DNA of 51,986 bases, taken from assembly GCA_902790405.1 (NCBI GenBank), contig CADARW010000020.1:1-51986 (forward strand). Reading direction: 5' to 3'. Below are positions 18,834 through 26,668 of this stretch, one piece after another. Source of the DNA: an uncultured Bacteroidia bacterium. GTDB taxonomy: Bacteria; Bacteroidota; Bacteroidia; Bacteroidales; ML635J-15. The first letter of the stretch is position 1. Each line of letters opens with the position of its first letter. A program made the position numbers and the translations under genes. The notes beneath the pieces were generated by a model. That model had not been told where the DNA came from. It made no database searches and saw only the letters and a list, made by a program, of their open reading frames with translations.

Positions 18834-18906
<73 letters not shown>

Positions 18907-18914
18907 CTACAAAA

Positions 18915-21208: not shown

Positions 21209-21216
21209 TAAATTTG
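21209..21216 (+). promoter_or_regulatory. -7 promoter box TAAATTTG for the 21.2-26.3 kb operon
   Basis: It matches TAnnTTTG and lies 32 nt upstream of the TTG at 21248. Confidence 0.45.
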
Positions 21217-21247
21217 TCCATTAATTTTTTTTTCTAAAGACGAAGAT

Positions 21248-21565
21248 TTGCGGTTTAAGTTGAGGCTTTCAATAGAGGAGACAGTAGAGAATGTTGTTCA
21301 GTATGCCTACAAGGATGGTATTGGCTGGATGGAAGTAGGCACAGCCCTCGAAAAAAATGGTTTGACACTTACAATTACCTTGAAGGATGCTGGCAAACCG
21401 TTTAATCCGCTTGAAAAAAGCGATCCGGACATCAATCTTCCACTCGAAGAGCGGGAAATCGGCGGTTTGGGCATTTATCTGTGCAAGCAACTTATGGACG
21501 AGGTCCTGTATCGCTACGAGGATGGATGTAACATATTGACAATGAAGAAGGAAATCTCTAAATAA
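21248..21565 (+). CDS. RsbW/SpoIIAB-like HATPase (anti-sigma-type Ser kinase), N-terminally short, TTG start
   Basis: N box EETVENVVQYAY, G1-like LKDAGKPFNP, G2 GGLGIYL. There is an in-frame stop at 21209-21211 and no in-frame ATG before the N box. About 35-40 aa that normally precede the N box are missing. Confidence 0.65.
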   Translation: MRFKLRLSIEETVENVVQYAYKDGIGWMEVGTALEKNGLTLTITLKDAGKPFNPLEKSDPDINLPLEEREIGGLGIYLCKQLMDEVLYRYEDGCNILTMKKEISK

Positions 21566-21573
21566 CAGTCGCT

Positions 21574-23478
21574 ATGCTTAATTCAAAATCAAAATCATTT
21601 TCAACAAGGTTAAGCCTTAATGTACTGTTGATTGTTACAATCCTTTTTGTTATTGTGCTGGGCATTGTTGCTGTATCTTCCCACATGCTTATTTCCGATG
21701 AGGCCAAGCGAAGTGCATCCAACATACTGAAAGCCACAATACTCGATGTGGAAAAAACTTTGCAGTCTGTAGAGTCCACCGTGAAAGACGCTTCGTGGCT
21801 GGCTAAGGAAAACGACAAAGATGAGAAATACCTATACCACATTACAAGCAAGGTTGTTGAGGAAAATTCATACATCATAGGCAGTGCCATTGCTTTCGAC
21901 TCATGCTATTTTGAAGGTCGGCATTTCTTTTCTCCGTATTCCTACGAGGATGCTGAGACTGGTGAACTAAAAAGCAAGGAACTAGGCACCGAAACAAACG
22001 ACTACTTTACTCAGGAATGGTACAGCGAACCTAAGAACACTGGCAATCCGCACTGGAGCGAACCATATTTCGATGTTGGCGGTGGAGAGCAGATGATGAC
22101 AACATACAGTTATCCGATAAAAGACTCTACCGGCCGTGTTTATGCCATTATCACTGCCGACATTTCGCTTGATTGGCTTTCGGAAAAGGTTTCCGCCATA
22201 CATCCATACGAGCATTCACAAACAATACTCATTAGCGCGCAAGGCAGATTTCTTACATCTGGTTCGGAATTTAATCTCGCAGGCGAATCGGCAATTGATG
22301 TAGCCGACACTTTGTTTAACGGGAGTTTAATGGAAATATCGAGGAACATGGTTGCTGGCGATAGCGGAACAATGCGCTTTTCTACCAGACGTGGATTAGC
22401 GTTTGCCGTATATGCACCTCTCGATAACGGCTGGTCGATGTCAATAACCTGCCAGTACAGCGAAGTGCTGGAACGCACTTCGCAAATGCACCTTGTACTT
22501 ATCATAGTCGGGCTTTTAGGGTTGCTGATAATGTTCATAATATGCTATCGCATAATACGGAAACTAACGCAACCGATTAAAGATTTTTCTGTCTCTGCTC
22601 TGAATATCGCAAATGGTGATTTCCATACCCAGCTTCCTGAGGTTAAGTCGAATGATGAGATACTAACACTACGCGACTCGTTGGCGTTTATGCAGCAGTC
22701 ATTGGTGACATACCTTGAGCAAATTGAATCGGTAACATCGGCAAAGAAGCGTATGGAAACTCAATTATACATCGGTCAGAAAATACAGGAGGGAATGTTG
22801 CCGAAGAATTTTCCCAACGACAGCCGATGTGCACTTAATGCGAAGGTGGTTCCTGCCAAGGAAGTCGGTGGCGACCTGTACGACTTTACCATCAACGGCA
22901 ATCGCCTTAATTTCTCGGTGGGCGATGTTTCGGACAAGGGTGTGCCTGCAGCTTTTGTGATGGCAATTACGAGGGTGATGTGTCACCTGTTTGCCGATTT
23001 GGGACTGCCGGTTAAGGATGTGGCTACTAGGATAAACAACAGCATTGCCAAGAGCAACGACGCAAATATGTTCGTCACCTTGTTTTTCGGCTGCATCGAC
23101 CTTGAAACCAAGAAGATGGAATTCTGCAATGCAGGACACAACCCGATAATTGTCATTCCTCCCGACGAAAAACCGTATTATCTCAAGGCAAATCCAAATA
23201 TGGCTGTAGGTGTATGGAATGGATTTGAATACAAGTCTGAAAGTTTGGATTTGCGTCCTGGAACCAAGCTTCTGCTTTACACCGACGGTGTAACCGAAGC
23301 AGAAAAAGCCGACAAGGAACAATTTGGTGAAGAACGGCTTCTGCAACTGGCATCAAAGCCCGAATTCAGAAATCTAAATCCCGATGAAATGGTTTTGACA
23401 GTACACAATGCTGTAACCGATTTTGCCAGTGGTAACGAACAGAACGATGACATAACAATTTTTGCAATAACAATATAA
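21574..23478 (+). CDS. Membrane sensor phosphatase: TM-Cache-TM-HAMP-PP2C (SpoIIE/RsbU family)
   Basis: Two TM segments flank a Cache-like domain (FSPYSYED...HWSEPYFD...YSYPIKD). A HAMP segment follows. PP2C motifs are GGDLYDF, GDVSDKG, NAGHNP, LYTDGVTEA and NDDITIFA. Confidence 0.9.
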   Translation: MLNSKSKSFSTRLSLNVLLIVTILFVIVLGIVAVSSHMLISDEAKRSASNILKATILDVEKTLQSVESTVKDASWLAKENDKDEKYLYHITSKVVEENSYIIGSAIAFDSCYFEGRHFFSPYSYEDAETGELKSKELGTETNDYFTQEWYSEPKNTGNPHWSEPYFDVGGGEQMMTTYSYPIKDSTGRVYAIITADISLDWLSEKVSAIHPYEHSQTILISAQGRFLTSGSEFNLAGESAIDVADTLFNGSLMEISRNMVAGDSGTMRFSTRRGLAFAVYAPLDNGWSMSITCQYSEVLERTSQMHLVLIIVGLLGLLIMFIICYRIIRKLTQPIKDFSVSALNIANGDFHTQLPEVKSNDEILTLRDSLAFMQQSLVTYLEQIESVTSAKKRMETQLYIGQKIQEGMLPKNFPNDSRCALNAKVVPAKEVGGDLYDFTINGNRLNFSVGDVSDKGVPAAFVMAITRVMCHLFADLGLPVKDVATRINNSIAKSNDANMFVTLFFGCIDLETKKMEFCNAGHNPIIVIPPDEKPYYLKANPNMAVGVWNGFEYKSESLDLRPGTKLLLYTDGVTEAEKADKEQFGEERLLQLASKPEFRNLNPDEMVLTVHNAVTDFASGNEQNDDITIFAITI

Positions 23479-23484
23479 GTATTT

Positions 23485-23787
23485 ATGGAAGTTAATATTG
23501 AAAATACTGGAAACAAGACATTTGTAGTTTTGAACGGACGACTTGACACGACAACCGCCGACAAGTTCATGCAGGACATTACTCCGCTTATGCAAGGAGA
23601 TAATCCCGACATTGAAATTGACTGCACAGGTTTGGAATACACATCGAGCCAAGGACTCCGTATGTTCCTTATGCTCCAGAAAAGTGTGACGGCACGTAAG
23701 GGTAACCTCGTGATGCGCAATATGAAACCAAATGTAAAGGAAGTGTTCGACATCACAGGTTTCTCGAACATAATTAAGATAGTTTAA
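23485..23787 (+). CDS. STAS-domain anti-sigma-factor antagonist (RsbV/SpoIIAA-like)
   Basis: 100 aa. LNGRLDTTTA...DCTGLEYTSSQGLRMFL contains the conserved phosphorylatable Ser context. It starts 6 nt after the phosphatase gene. Confidence 0.85.
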   Translation: MEVNIENTGNKTFVVLNGRLDTTTADKFMQDITPLMQGDNPDIEIDCTGLEYTSSQGLRMFLMLQKSVTARKGNLVMRNMKPNVKEVFDITGFSNIIKIV

Positions 23788-23808
23788 TTTTTAGCCACAG
23801 GCTTGAAT

Positions 23809-24894
23809 ATGGAATACAATCTTGACTTTCACTGTCAGATGATTCTTGACGAATATCGCGAGAATTTGGCGATATTTGAAAAGATGAAGGAAATCGTGCG
23901 AGCACAACTCGAAAAGTGCGTCGCCGACAACAATATATATGTTACTGCAATAGAGTCGAGAATAAAGACAGAAAACAGTCTCGCCGGTAAGTTGGAACTC
24001 AAGGGGTATAAGTACAAGGCTCTCTCGGACATTACCGACATTTTAGGCACTCGTGTCATTACCTTCTATTCTGAGGAAGTTGACAAGATTTCGGCTCTCA
24101 TCGACAAGGTTTTCGAAGTCGATTGGGAAAACTCGGTAGATAAGCGCAAGGCTCTCGATCTCGACCAGTTCGGATATATGTCGCTGCACTACATCTGTCG
24201 TATACCAAAGTCGCTGTACTACGATGCCGAACATCCCGAAATAAACGATTTCCGCTTCGAAATACAGATGCGCACCGCCCTGCAGCATGTGTGGGCTACA
24301 ATGTACCACGACACAGGCTACAAGTCGGGCATTGAGGTACCAAAGGAGCATCTACGCAATATGAACCGCCTTGCCGGTATGCTAGAACTTGCCGACGAGC
24401 AGTTTAGTCGCATACGCAAGGAAATCACCGACTATCGTCGCAATGTGCAGTCGTTGGTTACCGACGGTAACTTCGACGAAGTGCCTCTCGACAGCGACAC
24501 CTTCCGCAGCTACCTCACTATGAAGCCTTTCAAGAAGCTAATCGACAAGATTGCAACCATCAATCAGGCCGAAATCTACGAGGACAACCTAATGCGCTAC
24601 TTGACAACGCTGATAAAGATGAACTTCCGAACTCTTGGTGATTTGCAACGGCTTATAAAGGACTGCAGTGACGATGCATACAAACTTGCACTTCATCAGC
24701 TTTCGTCGACAGATCTCGACATTCTGGCGCTGTCGGTGGCATTGCAGAACCTTTGCATAGTGTATATAGTAAAGAATGGAGGCGGTGAAATCGGTCTGCG
24801 AATGTTCTACGATTCCGTTTTTGGAAAGTCGGACTACAACATCGAGCACGCACGGCGCACATTCGAACAGGTGTCGAAAATTAATATAAAGTAG
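23809..24894 (+). CDS. RelA/SpoT-domain nucleotide pyrophosphokinase (small alarmone synthetase type) with a ~150 aa helical C-terminal extension
   Basis: Motifs are RIKTENSLAGKL, DILGTRVITFY, ENSVDKRKALDLDQFGYMSLHY and FEIQMRTALQHVWATMYHDTGYK. There is no HD, TGS or ACT domain. Confidence 0.85.
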   Translation: MEYNLDFHCQMILDEYRENLAIFEKMKEIVRAQLEKCVADNNIYVTAIESRIKTENSLAGKLELKGYKYKALSDITDILGTRVITFYSEEVDKISALIDKVFEVDWENSVDKRKALDLDQFGYMSLHYICRIPKSLYYDAEHPEINDFRFEIQMRTALQHVWATMYHDTGYKSGIEVPKEHLRNMNRLAGMLELADEQFSRIRKEITDYRRNVQSLVTDGNFDEVPLDSDTFRSYLTMKPFKKLIDKIATINQAEIYEDNLMRYLTTLIKMNFRTLGDLQRLIKDCSDDAYKLALHQLSSTDLDILALSVALQNLCIVYIVKNGGGEIGLRMFYDSVFGKSDYNIEHARRTFEQVSKINIK

Positions 24895-24905
24895 AAAGTA
24901 AATTT

Positions 24906-26315
24906 ATGGCAAACAAATATATAGACACATCCATCCTCGACAAGGCAATGCATTTTGCAATTGATGCACACGCCAATACCGAACGTCGAGGAAAGGGTTT
25001 CCCATACTCGGTACACTTAATGGAAGCGGTGGAGATAGCCGCAACAATAACTTCTGATCAGGAAATACTTGCCGCAGCAGCATTGCACGATACAATTGAA
25101 GATACAGATGTAACATTGAAGCAGTTGCGCGAGGAATTTGGCAATAGGATTGCAGCTTTGGTAGAAGCCGAAAGCGATAAGTTTGCAAATGGCTTTTCGG
25201 AGCGGGACAGTTGGACTGACCGAAAAAAGGCAGCCCTGGAAAGGCTCGCCAATGCTCCATACGATGCAAAAATTGTGGCTATGGGCGACAAACTCTCGAA
25301 TATGCGCGCCATCGCCCGCGACTACGAGCGTATTGGCGACGAGCTTTGGAAAATCTTCCATGCACCAAATGGCAAATCCGACCACGAATGGCGCTACCGC
25401 GAACTGGCAGTAGCACTTTTCGACCTTGCTGGAACTCCTGCATACCGCGAATTTATTACTCTGCTTGAAAAGACGTTCGGACAGAAGGATTTCGGTGAGC
25501 CAGCAAAAATCAACCTCGCAGACTATGAGCGTAGTGGCGAAGGCTTCAATGCCGAAAGTTACAACCATAAGGGTGGACGCACAATGATAAAGTTGTACGC
25601 CGAATCGGTATCGCCCGAAATGCCGTTGCGCGAACTTCGCACTGCAATGAATGTTTTCCGTATGGGACTGCCTACGCCTATGCCAGGACGCTTTGTCACC
25701 GATGGCAAGAGGTACGGTTGCGAGTTTGGTCGTATTGTCGATAAGAAGTCGTTTGCAAGGGCAATATCCGAGAATCCCGACAGTATGAAAAGATATGCAG
25801 CCGAATTTGCCCGTATGTGCAGGCAGTTGCATTCTACGGTTTGCAATCCTGCTGTTTTCCCGTCGGCAGTCGAAATGTCTTGCAGGGCAGTTGAAAATGC
25901 AGAAATTTTCACCGACGACGAGAAGAAAAAGGTTCTCGATTTTGTGAAAAGCATACCACCAGCAACGACTTGTCTCCACGGCGACTTGCATATCGGCAAT
26001 ATTCTCGATTCTAGTTTCGGCAACCTGTGGATTGACCTTGCCGATTTCAGCTATGGCAATCCATTGTTCGACTTTGGCATGATGTACCTTGTCTGCAGGT
26101 GCAATCCCGACGACTTGACAAAGAAGCTATATCATATCGACAATGCGGCAATGCTCAAGTTCTGGGAGATGTTTGCCTGCGAATATTTTGGTACCGATAC
26201 TCCCGAAAAGCTCGCCAAAGTAGAAAATAAACTTCGCCCGTTTGCAGCTTTGAAGATGCTGTATTTCGGAATTAAGGGCTACGACAATTTCATAAGGGAA
26301 AGCTTGCTGGGATAA
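24906..26315 (+). CDS. Fusion of a SpoT/Mesh1-type HD alarmone hydrolase domain with an APH/choline-kinase-like phosphotransferase domain
   Basis: The N-terminal part has YSVHLMEAV, ALHDTIEDT, VEAESD and GDKLSN, the (p)ppGpp-hydrolase HD signature. The C-terminal part has CLHGDLHIGNIL and WIDLADFSYGNPLFDFG, the APH catalytic loop and DxD. Confidence 0.8.
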   Translation: MANKYIDTSILDKAMHFAIDAHANTERRGKGFPYSVHLMEAVEIAATITSDQEILAAAALHDTIEDTDVTLKQLREEFGNRIAALVEAESDKFANGFSERDSWTDRKKAALERLANAPYDAKIVAMGDKLSNMRAIARDYERIGDELWKIFHAPNGKSDHEWRYRELAVALFDLAGTPAYREFITLLEKTFGQKDFGEPAKINLADYERSGEGFNAESYNHKGGRTMIKLYAESVSPEMPLRELRTAMNVFRMGLPTPMPGRFVTDGKRYGCEFGRIVDKKSFARAISENPDSMKRYAAEFARMCRQLHSTVCNPAVFPSAVEMSCRAVENAEIFTDDEKKKVLDFVKSIPPATTCLHGDLHIGNILDSSFGNLWIDLADFSYGNPLFDFGMMYLVCRCNPDDLTKKLYHIDNAAMLKFWEMFACEYFGTDTPEKLAKVENKLRPFAALKMLYFGIKGYDNFIRESLLG

Positions 26316-26668
26316 CGCTACGCAGTTTCAATGGCTGCGCCGTTTGAATGCCTTCGGCGTTTCTATGTGCTTCGCACGTTTGAATGGCTGACGCCGTTTG
26401 AATGCCTTCGGCGTTTCTATGGCTACGCCGTTTGAATGGCTACGCCGTTTCTGTGGCTGCGCCGTTTCTCGCTTCGCGTTTCAATGGCTTCGCCGTTTGA
26501 ATGGCTACGCCGTTTCTGTGGCTGCGCCGTTTCTCGCTTCGCGTTTCAATGGCTGCGCCGTTTCTCGCTTCGCTGTTTCTATGCCTTCGGCGTTCCTAAG
26601 TTTGTGTCTTGCAGGCTTAAAGCCTTTTAGCCTTCCAGCCCAAGGGGTTCAATGGCTTCGCCGTTTCT
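26316..26668. repeat. Degenerate tandem array with a ~15-19 nt period, ~18 units, consensus GGCNNCGCC-GTTT(C/G)(A/T)AT
   Basis: It starts on the base after the TAA at 26313-26315. Each unit holds a GGC-NNN-GCC or GCC-TTC-GGC mini-hairpin followed by GTTT. An exact 64 nt block occurs at 26426-26489 and again at 26491-26554 (65 nt period). A second higher-order period of 54 nt is seen at 26342 and 26396. A solitary unit lies at 26648-26668. Confidence 0.9.

Follow-up and report, generated by a model that had tools for sequence, protein, structure and literature searches.

A partner-switching operon with a small alarmone synthetase as its candidate output in an uncultured Bacteroidales bacterium

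What does a bacterial partner switch control when no sigma factor is encoded beside it? The question is raised by five genes at positions 21209–26315 of a 51,986-nucleotide (nt) stretch of contig CADARW010000020.1 (GenBank assembly GCA_902790405.1) from an uncultured Bacteroidia bacterium of the order Bacteroidales. The whole stretch is called the window below. In order, the genes encode a serine kinase (HATPase_c_2), a membrane phosphatase with transmembrane (TM), Cache, HAMP and PP2C parts, a STAS protein, a small alarmone synthetase (SAS) with a RelA_SpoT domain, and an HD_4::APH fusion protein. A first-pass annotation, made from the letters alone, had proposed that the output of the switch is alarmone synthesis or turnover. 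Conserved linkage, the lack of a sigma-factor neighbour and intact catalytic residues support that proposal as far as sequence analysis reaches. We favour, with moderate confidence, a partner-switching module that has the SAS, and not a sigma factor, as its output. The operon probably links outside signals to alarmone levels.

The five open reading frames (ORFs) lie on the plus strand, and the intergenic gaps reported for them (8, 6, 21 and 11 nt) were reproduced with the SAS start at ATG 23809. The SAS ORF is open from TTG 23803; its start was placed at ATG 23809 because orthologues of 361 amino acids (aa) begin MEYNLD. The gaps are compatible with a single operon. Each domain named in the first-pass annotation (HATPase, TM-Cache-HAMP-PP2C, STAS, RelA/SpoT and HD::APH) was recovered by Pfam hidden Markov model search. 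The TAnnTTTG box that had been placed ahead of the operon is TAAATTTG, a Bacteroidetes-type −7 promoter box at 21209–21216 on the plus strand, within the 56-nt spacer 3′ of a Na/Pi-cotransporter gene. The motif is weakly enriched in the window (60 matches observed, 45 expected) and by itself is weak evidence; this copy is kept in five orthologous loci in the alignment.

The absence of a sigma factor, also stated in the annotation, held. No Sigma70 or other sigma-factor domain was found by Pfam among ORFs of at least 150 aa in the 52-kb window, and in the Pfam-annotated neighbourhoods of relatives no sigma-factor gene is conserved next to the module. An extracytoplasmic function (ECF) sigma gene (L181 11877–12395; loci L173-L188) lies 0.85 kb downstream of HATPase-STAS-SAS genes, with a pyrH-like gene between. 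It is confined to one close-knit group of metagenome contigs that are 88–100% identical, and it occurs in 0 of ~120 other non-viral loci. As a hidden target of the switch it was rejected, since it adjoins the module in that group only.

Linkage between the switch and the synthetase is widespread. A scan of one genome per species gave 33 Bacteroidales loci that encode the synthetase at 57–99% identity, and the window matches rumen metagenome-assembled genomes (MAGs) RUG14538 and UBA1184 at 99%. Linkage was called by tblastn with each window protein when the kinase and/or STAS lay within ~9 kb of the synthetase. The sample of neighbourhoods was pattern-driven and limited in number, and further neighbourhoods were read from precomputed Pfam labels. 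The switch lies beside the SAS in 28 of ~30 Bacteroidales species loci with enough flank, the exceptions being L006 and L012. At least one switch part was present in 26 of the 36 metagenome loci with at least 3 kb on each side. Synteny therefore extends beyond this genome, across Bacteroidales and into Paludibacteraceae, Clostridia and a high-GC lineage.

The arrangement of the genes varies widely. Bacteroidales loci have the orders HATP-PP2C-STAS-SAS-HD::APH, HATP-STAS-SAS-HD::APH and PP2C-HATP-STAS-SAS-HD, and SAS-HD-HATP-STAS-PP2C and SAS-HD::APH-HATP-PP2C-STAS were also seen. One Bacteroidales MAG has a SAS::HD fusion followed by a separate APH gene. Paludibacteraceae encode a Cache-SpoIIE-HATPase fusion, then STAS, SAS, APH, HD and Y_phosphatase3. 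A gut lineage of 63% GC (L046) has STAS, a 5TMR_LYT-HAMP-SpoIIE-HATPase fusion, SAS and HD; its SAS and that of the window share 40% identity across 345 residues that take in the C-terminal domain. In a Candidatus Coproplasma (Clostridia) MAG the order is SAS-HD-STAS, and a 5TMR_LYT-SpoIIE-HATPase fusion lies at a distance of 3 kb. Flanking genes are conserved among close relatives only and are otherwise unrelated. Gene orders number more than 10 in total and fusions are of two kinds (PP2C::HATPase and SAS::HD); that the families stay together throughout argues for functional coupling and not chance. The synthetase is the partner that STAS and the kinase keep. One Bacteroidales branch (L173-L188) has HATPase-STAS-SAS only; its STAS stop codon overlaps the start of the SAS, and neither HD nor PP2C is encoded nearby; this minimal core points to the SAS as the target of the switch.

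Further variants were seen among these loci. The Y_phosphatase3 gene of Paludibacteraceae (L042 8557–9360) is tyrosine-phosphatase-like, lies directly 3′ of HD and may be an extra accessory part. In one red-deer MAG (L010 3703–9843), a gene of 2046 aa sits between STAS and SAS and splits the operon. Some Clostridia-type loci (L142, L143, L139 and L053) have two STAS genes around SAS-HD; in L053 the second is on the opposite strand, ~6.5 kb away.

The synthetase gene (23809–24894, plus strand) encodes 361 aa and matches Pfam RelA_SpoT with E 2.8e-16 (60.3 bits against a cutoff of 27). The predicted layout is a RelQ/RelP-like catalytic domain (residues ~1–175), a long helix (~181–221) and a conserved helical C-terminal domain (~231–360). 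The catalytic domain is closest to RelQ/RelP in a profile search of the PDB (E ~5e-15) and by Foldseek (template modelling score ~0.8). Its score to the NCBIfam YjbM (RelQ) equivalog is 49 bits where 320 are required, and the protein is not a RelQ orthologue. It retains the family-wide invariant residues, including the D of DxxGxR and the E of EIQxRT, and its synthetase motifs align with those of RelP. With these catalytic residues kept, the SAS is predicted to be active and not catalytically dead. Its product is most likely (p)ppGpp, because the catalytic domain is nearest RelQ/RelP and the adjacent hydrolase is nearest solved small alarmone hydrolases (SAHs); (pp)pApp is a possible alternative.

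An AlphaFold2 model of the SAS has a predicted local distance difference test (pLDDT) score of 85.7, and the C-terminal domain modelled alone scores 92.4. This domain has no fold match in the PDB (best E 1.7) or BFVD (best E 2.5); as modelled, it is an orphan fold and is not sigma-like. Sigma mimicry, in which the C-terminal domain would offer a sigma-like grip to an anti-sigma kinase, was rejected as unsupported in view of the confident model and the absence of a match in either database.

The phosphatase gene (21574–23478, plus strand) encodes a 634-aa membrane sensor with the order TM, Cache (PDC), TM, HAMP and PP2C (SpoIIE). Pfam matches are SpoIIE (E 1.8e-48, profile positions 2–190 of 192), MCP-like_PDC_1 (3.4e-30), dCache_1 (3.7e-13) and HAMP (3.6e-8). 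The Cache domain is predicted to be extracytoplasmic because hydrophobic segments lie on both sides of it. The PP2C motifs GDVSDKG, DGVTEA and DDITIF are readable. The STAS gene (23485–23787, plus strand) encodes a single domain of 100 aa of the anti-sigma-antagonist type (Pfam STAS, E 7.5e-17), which scores above the cutoff of TIGR00377, the anti-sigma-antagonist superfamily (72.4 against 53.45 bits). A phosphorylatable serine is present in TSSQGL. It aligns to S58, the phosphorylated serine of SpoIIAA, and is invariant in 19 orthologues from all lineages.

The ORF 11 nt downstream of the SAS (24906–26315, plus strand) encodes a fusion of 469 aa. Its N-terminal half (24906–25490) is a SpoT-type HD hydrolase domain (Pfam HD_4, E 2.2e-17, 63.6 against 27.2 bits), whose best solved relative is the SAH 7QOC (E 5.5e-21). 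The motifs H...HD..ED and DKLSN are readable. HD is a separate gene of ~180–200 aa in many orthologous loci. Three independent SAS::HD fusion proteins (P0042, P0330 and P0579; 559, 524 and 530 aa) argue that the synthetase and the hydrolase act on the same compound. These fusions (L038 8001–9680; P0330 and P0579) have the order Syn-HD; long RelA/SpoT enzymes have the reverse order, HD-Syn. The C-terminal half (25509–26315) is an APH-like kinase domain (Pfam APH, E 5e-9) that scores above the TIGR02172 cutoff (237.9 against 228.2 bits over residues 202–427). It retains the kinase motifs HGDxxxxN (HGDLHIGN) and IDxxD (IDLAD). The APH-like part occurs in Bacteroidales branches only and is fused, separate, on the opposite strand or absent among relatives.

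In the mechanism that we favour, the Cache domain would sense an extracytoplasmic ligand and the PP2C domain would dephosphorylate STAS. The HATPase_c_2 kinase would re-phosphorylate STAS at the conserved serine, and the phosphorylation state of STAS would set the activity of the RelQ/RelP-like synthetase. STAS would most likely bind the synthetase directly, at the long helix or at the family-specific C-terminal domain, in the way that SiaC and HsbA act with diguanylate cyclases; we infer these protein contacts by analogy. The adjacent SpoT-type hydrolase would clear the product, so that the signal would be transient and non-toxic, and the APH-like kinase would be a lineage-specific accessory. 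The choice of STAS over the kinase as the proposed diffusible output rests mainly on the fusion of the kinase domain to the membrane PP2C, seen in many lineages: this layout suits a bifunctional STAS kinase/phosphatase better than a free sequestering protein. SypE is a bifunctional STAS kinase/phosphatase of this kind, with STAS as the output.

Several observations weigh against this mechanism. The SAS has no nearby switch in 10 of the 36 metagenome loci, mostly from one sub-branch, nor in the Olsenella locus or the two Bacteroidales exceptions; the coupling may be non-obligatory, or the partners may lie elsewhere in those genomes. The lack of a fold match for the C-terminal domain means that no docking site is identified. 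The relationships among SAS proteins given below come from a neighbour-joining (NJ) tree only, and a phage-borne sister clade in that tree makes a toxic-effector ancestry possible. Finally, the window's own kinase gene is truncated.

The kinase gene (21248–21565, plus strand) encodes an RsbW/SpoIIAB-like serine kinase of 105 aa with a TTG start directly after an in-frame TAA. It matches Pfam HATPase_c_2 with E 5.4e-19, but the profile is aligned from position 31 only, and the score to NCBIfam RsbW is 49.7 bits, far under the cutoff. The N, G1 and G2 boxes of a HATPase_c_2 serine kinase are present, with the N box (EETVENVVQYAY), DAGKPF and GGLGIY readable. Alignment placed a junction at 21225–21238 (plus strand), right behind the promoter box, where ~80 nt are absent that are present in L001, L002, L003, L009 and L013 (91–100% identical loci). 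The window reads TTTTTTTTTTCTAAAG where the relatives read TTTTTTTGAAGATGAAGAAA...GATATGCCTAAAG. The missing nucleotides contain the native kinase ATG and ~29 codons (MKKLFNPIKDKTAEIIEYLMSSPDMPKDED). Kinase orthologues are mostly 129–137 aa, and the whole conserved N-terminus is present in 25 of 26; the remaining one, L004, was called from an internal ATG. A full-length kinase with its N-terminal helix is thus encoded in relatives such as L001 and not in the window.

The junction is not a clean deletion, having three extra T's, which makes an assembly error in the MAG possible. The short kinase reflects either a natural, strain-level 5′ deletion or such an assembly error. A frameshift in a poly-T run was rejected as the cause, given that the spacer to the upstream gene is just 56 nt and ~80 nt are absent. 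In structures of SpoIIAB, the N-terminal helix takes part in dimerisation and partner binding. For that reason the kinase would probably be inactive if the truncation is real; STAS would then remain unphosphorylated, with the switch fixed in a single state.

Other wirings of the same parts were weighed. Under classical anti-sigma logic, transferred from sigma to the SAS, the kinase would bind and silence the SAS until the PP2C yields unphosphorylated STAS, which would capture the kinase and so release the SAS. The three switch parts do form the RsbW/RsbV/RsbU set, and the clade of the window, like several others, has a free kinase of ~135 aa whose N-terminal segment is conserved. The corresponding region of SpoIIAB touches its partners. 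However, the fusion of the kinase to the C-terminus of the membrane PP2C in many lineages is the layout of SypE-like bifunctional enzymes with a STAS output, and the SAS C-terminal domain bears no likeness to sigma-factor domains. This wiring is rather unlikely. The switch might instead act on an unlinked sigma factor, on the HD hydrolase or on the APH-like kinase, with the SAS merely co-transcribed. Some partner switches do act on distant targets, an ECF sigma gene follows the SAS in the one group described above, and HD is present in most loci, so that hydrolysis could be the regulated step. Sigma genes under anti-sigma kinases of this type normally adjoin the kinase gene, yet none lies beside the kinase here, and the ECF gene is limited to its single group. 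STAS and the kinase are always accompanied by the SAS, which is not true of HD or APH, and a target other than the SAS is judged very improbable.

The remaining alternative, raised in the first-pass annotation as a toxic SAS (toxSAS) or phage-defence layout, is a regulated toxic SAS that serves a toxin–antitoxin, dormancy or abortive-infection system. The SAS would make ppApp or pyrophosphorylate tRNA, HD would be a type IV antitoxin, and the switch would be a trigger layer. An adjoining candidate neutralising gene (SAH) is present, as in toxSAS modules, and SAS followed by SAH is the layout of FaRel/ATfaRel (PMC7229694). Kinase/STAS-like pairs have also been co-opted for immune operons and a VapC toxin (CapK/CapS, PMC13373217). 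The family tree bears on this alternative in both directions. The SAS family comprises proteins of ~350–380 aa (1226 clusters at 50% identity, E 1e-30 or better) that share the catalytic domain and much of the helical C-terminal extension. All switch-linked SASs group with a solo Olsenella protein in a single clade that has no viral member and is supported by 100/100 NJ bootstrap replicates. The sister clade is solo and phage-borne and corresponds to phrog_9640, to which a Citrobacter protein scores 363 bits over its full length and the window protein 207 bits. On IMG/VR viral contigs, 119 SAS relatives were found, and none of 80 viral loci examined had a STAS, kinase, PP2C, HD or APH gene within 6 kb.

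Many proteins of the SAS family are solo and encoded on mobile DNA. Citrobacter werkmanii has a P2-like prophage in which a solo SAS of 358 aa (L041 6001–7077), 35% identical to the window SAS, is encoded on the opposite strand, with a baseplate gene (Phage_base_V) on one side and a tail gene (Phage_tail_S) on the other. Cargo of P2-like phages, whether accessory or for defence, is carried at positions like this one. Among other mobile solo members, one is in a prophage-like Ralstonia region and one adjoins an integrase gene. Against a toxic role of the switch-linked SASs stand the absence of viral members from their clade and of switch or HD genes from the viral loci, the housekeeping neighbours in the window (the Na/Pi transporter, RibD, PyrH, RRF, DXS and Rnf), and the apparently vertical inheritance of the locus among close relatives, whose flanks are conserved. 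One branch (L173-L188) has no hydrolase, which is hard to square with an essential antitoxin. The catalytic core is nearest RelQ/RelP. Among toxSAS subfamilies the comparison covered CapRel (7ZTB), and membership of CapRel was rejected (E 0.06 against the family profile, and a Foldseek root-mean-square deviation above 15 Å at full length). Membership of PADLOC PDC-S33 was likewise rejected, as the match (61.6 bits) is weak, covers only model positions 36–186 of 349 (the catalytic core) and is common to all members, prophage and non-prophage proteins scoring alike. The toxSAS and phage-defence idea is the weaker reading of the switch-linked clade, and the phage-borne sister clade gives it some basis. 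A regulated toxic SAS is quite unlikely. It is also unlikely that the synthetase derives from a phage effector and is still growth-arresting, through (pp)pApp synthesis or tRNA pyrophosphorylation, held in check by the phospho-switch and the hydrolase in gut anaerobes of several phyla. If it were so, an envelope or extracellular cue would, via a C-terminal domain of new fold, set off the module as a device for dormancy or abortive infection.

The favoured reading, a switch with the SAS as its output, has close parallels. Partner switches with a diguanylate cyclase as output are known (SiaC-SiaD, HsbA-HsbD and BgrV-BgrR), with a STAS or STAS-like protein as the controller (PMC8457831, PMC5085249). 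SiaABCD of Pseudomonas aeruginosa, HsbR/HsbA-HsbD and BgrSTUWV-BgrR resemble the window operon in having a membrane- or HAMP-linked PP2C, a Ser/Thr kinase and a small switch protein beside a second-messenger synthase, which the switch protein governs by direct binding (PMC8457831, PMC5085249). Their output is a GGDEF cyclase, whereas that of the window would be a RelA/SpoT-family pyrophosphokinase with a co-encoded dedicated hydrolase. SiaA is the best NCBIfam match of the window PP2C, yet at 68 bits against a cutoff of 700 the two are not orthologues. The switch proteins differ too: SiaC belongs to DUF1987 and is phosphorylated on Thr (PMC8457831), and that of the window operon has a canonical STAS domain and Ser. 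By Pfam, the operon has neither a GGDEF nor a DUF1987 domain; SiaABCD is an analogue, and the window operon is not a member of that system.

Likeness to other known systems is partial. The RsbU-RsbV-RsbW/sigma B and SpoIIE-SpoIIAA-SpoIIAB/sigma F switches of Bacillus subtilis share HATPase_c_2, STAS and SpoIIE/PP2C domains and the phospho-serine position with the window. Unlike them, the window operon has no sigma gene and its phosphatase has an extracytoplasmic Cache sensor; against the RsbW, SpoIIAB and SpoIIAA equivalogs its proteins score far under the cutoffs. RelQ/RelP (SAS1/SAS2), housekeeping enzymes of Firmicutes, are the nearest solved relatives of the catalytic domain and share its conserved synthetase motifs, but the window SAS is only ~20–25% identical to them and has a C-terminal extension of ~150 aa. 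SAS-SAH pairs are known as toxin–antitoxin modules (FaRel/ATfaRel, PMC7229694). Such toxSAS systems resemble the window in placing a SAS beside a SAH (FaRel with the ATfaRel SAH), or, in the fused toxin–antitoxin protein CapRel, in a length of ~360 aa with a regulatory-looking C-terminal domain (PMC7229694, PMC9712102). The switch-linked members differ in lying off phage and mobile DNA, and the window has three extra signalling genes. CapK/CapS (PMC13373217) are likewise anti-sigma-kinase-like and STAS-like proteins diverted from sigma control to an adjacent effector, but the window STAS is a bare 100-aa domain, the PP2C has an extracytoplasmic sensor and the neighbours are alarmone enzymes.

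The first-pass annotation knew of no described system with this composition, and full-text literature searches aimed at a partner switch with an alarmone synthetase found no description of one. The module is not a categorically new system, since non-sigma outputs of partner switches and SAS-SAH pairs are already known. What would be new is the class of output for partner switching and the input for alarmone synthesis. Control of (p)ppGpp synthesis is otherwise known in three forms: long RelA/SpoT homologues (RSHs) that sense the ribosome, a few single partners (ACP, EIIA-Ntr and DarB among them), and transcription or allostery for RelP/RelQ. If the favoured reading is right, alarmones would come under a new kind of control, outside-in and ribosome-independent, through a serine-phosphorylation switch whose Cache or 5TMR_LYT sensor is extracytoplasmic. 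The RSH superfamily would join sigma factors and diguanylate cyclases among the outputs of partner switches. The module, widespread among Clostridia and the uncultured Bacteroidales of rumen and gut, could shape entry into and exit from slow growth in abundant gut anaerobes.

Housekeeping genes surround the operon: a Na/Pi cotransporter with PhoU, tRNA-Met, a CAAX protease, RibD, RRF, PyrH, shikimate kinase, DXS and Rnf. The tRNA-Met (CAT) gene is at 18834–18907, 0.6 kb upstream of the Na/Pi-cotransporter gene that precedes the operon. A tandem array at 26316–26594, directly 3′ of the HD::APH stop codon, has a 17-nt period, the consensus GCTTCGCCGTTTCAATG and ~16.6 copies, with higher-order periods of 48 and 65 nt. 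In L013, the spacer of ~450 nt that separates the kinase gene from the Na/Pi transporter gene is filled with similar GC-rich repeats. At the start of the window (42–8291), an ORF of 2749 aa with FG-GAP, RHS-repeat and TcdB_toxin_midN domains resembles a polymorphic toxin. Several small ORFs with no Pfam match lie 3′ of it and could be immunity genes.

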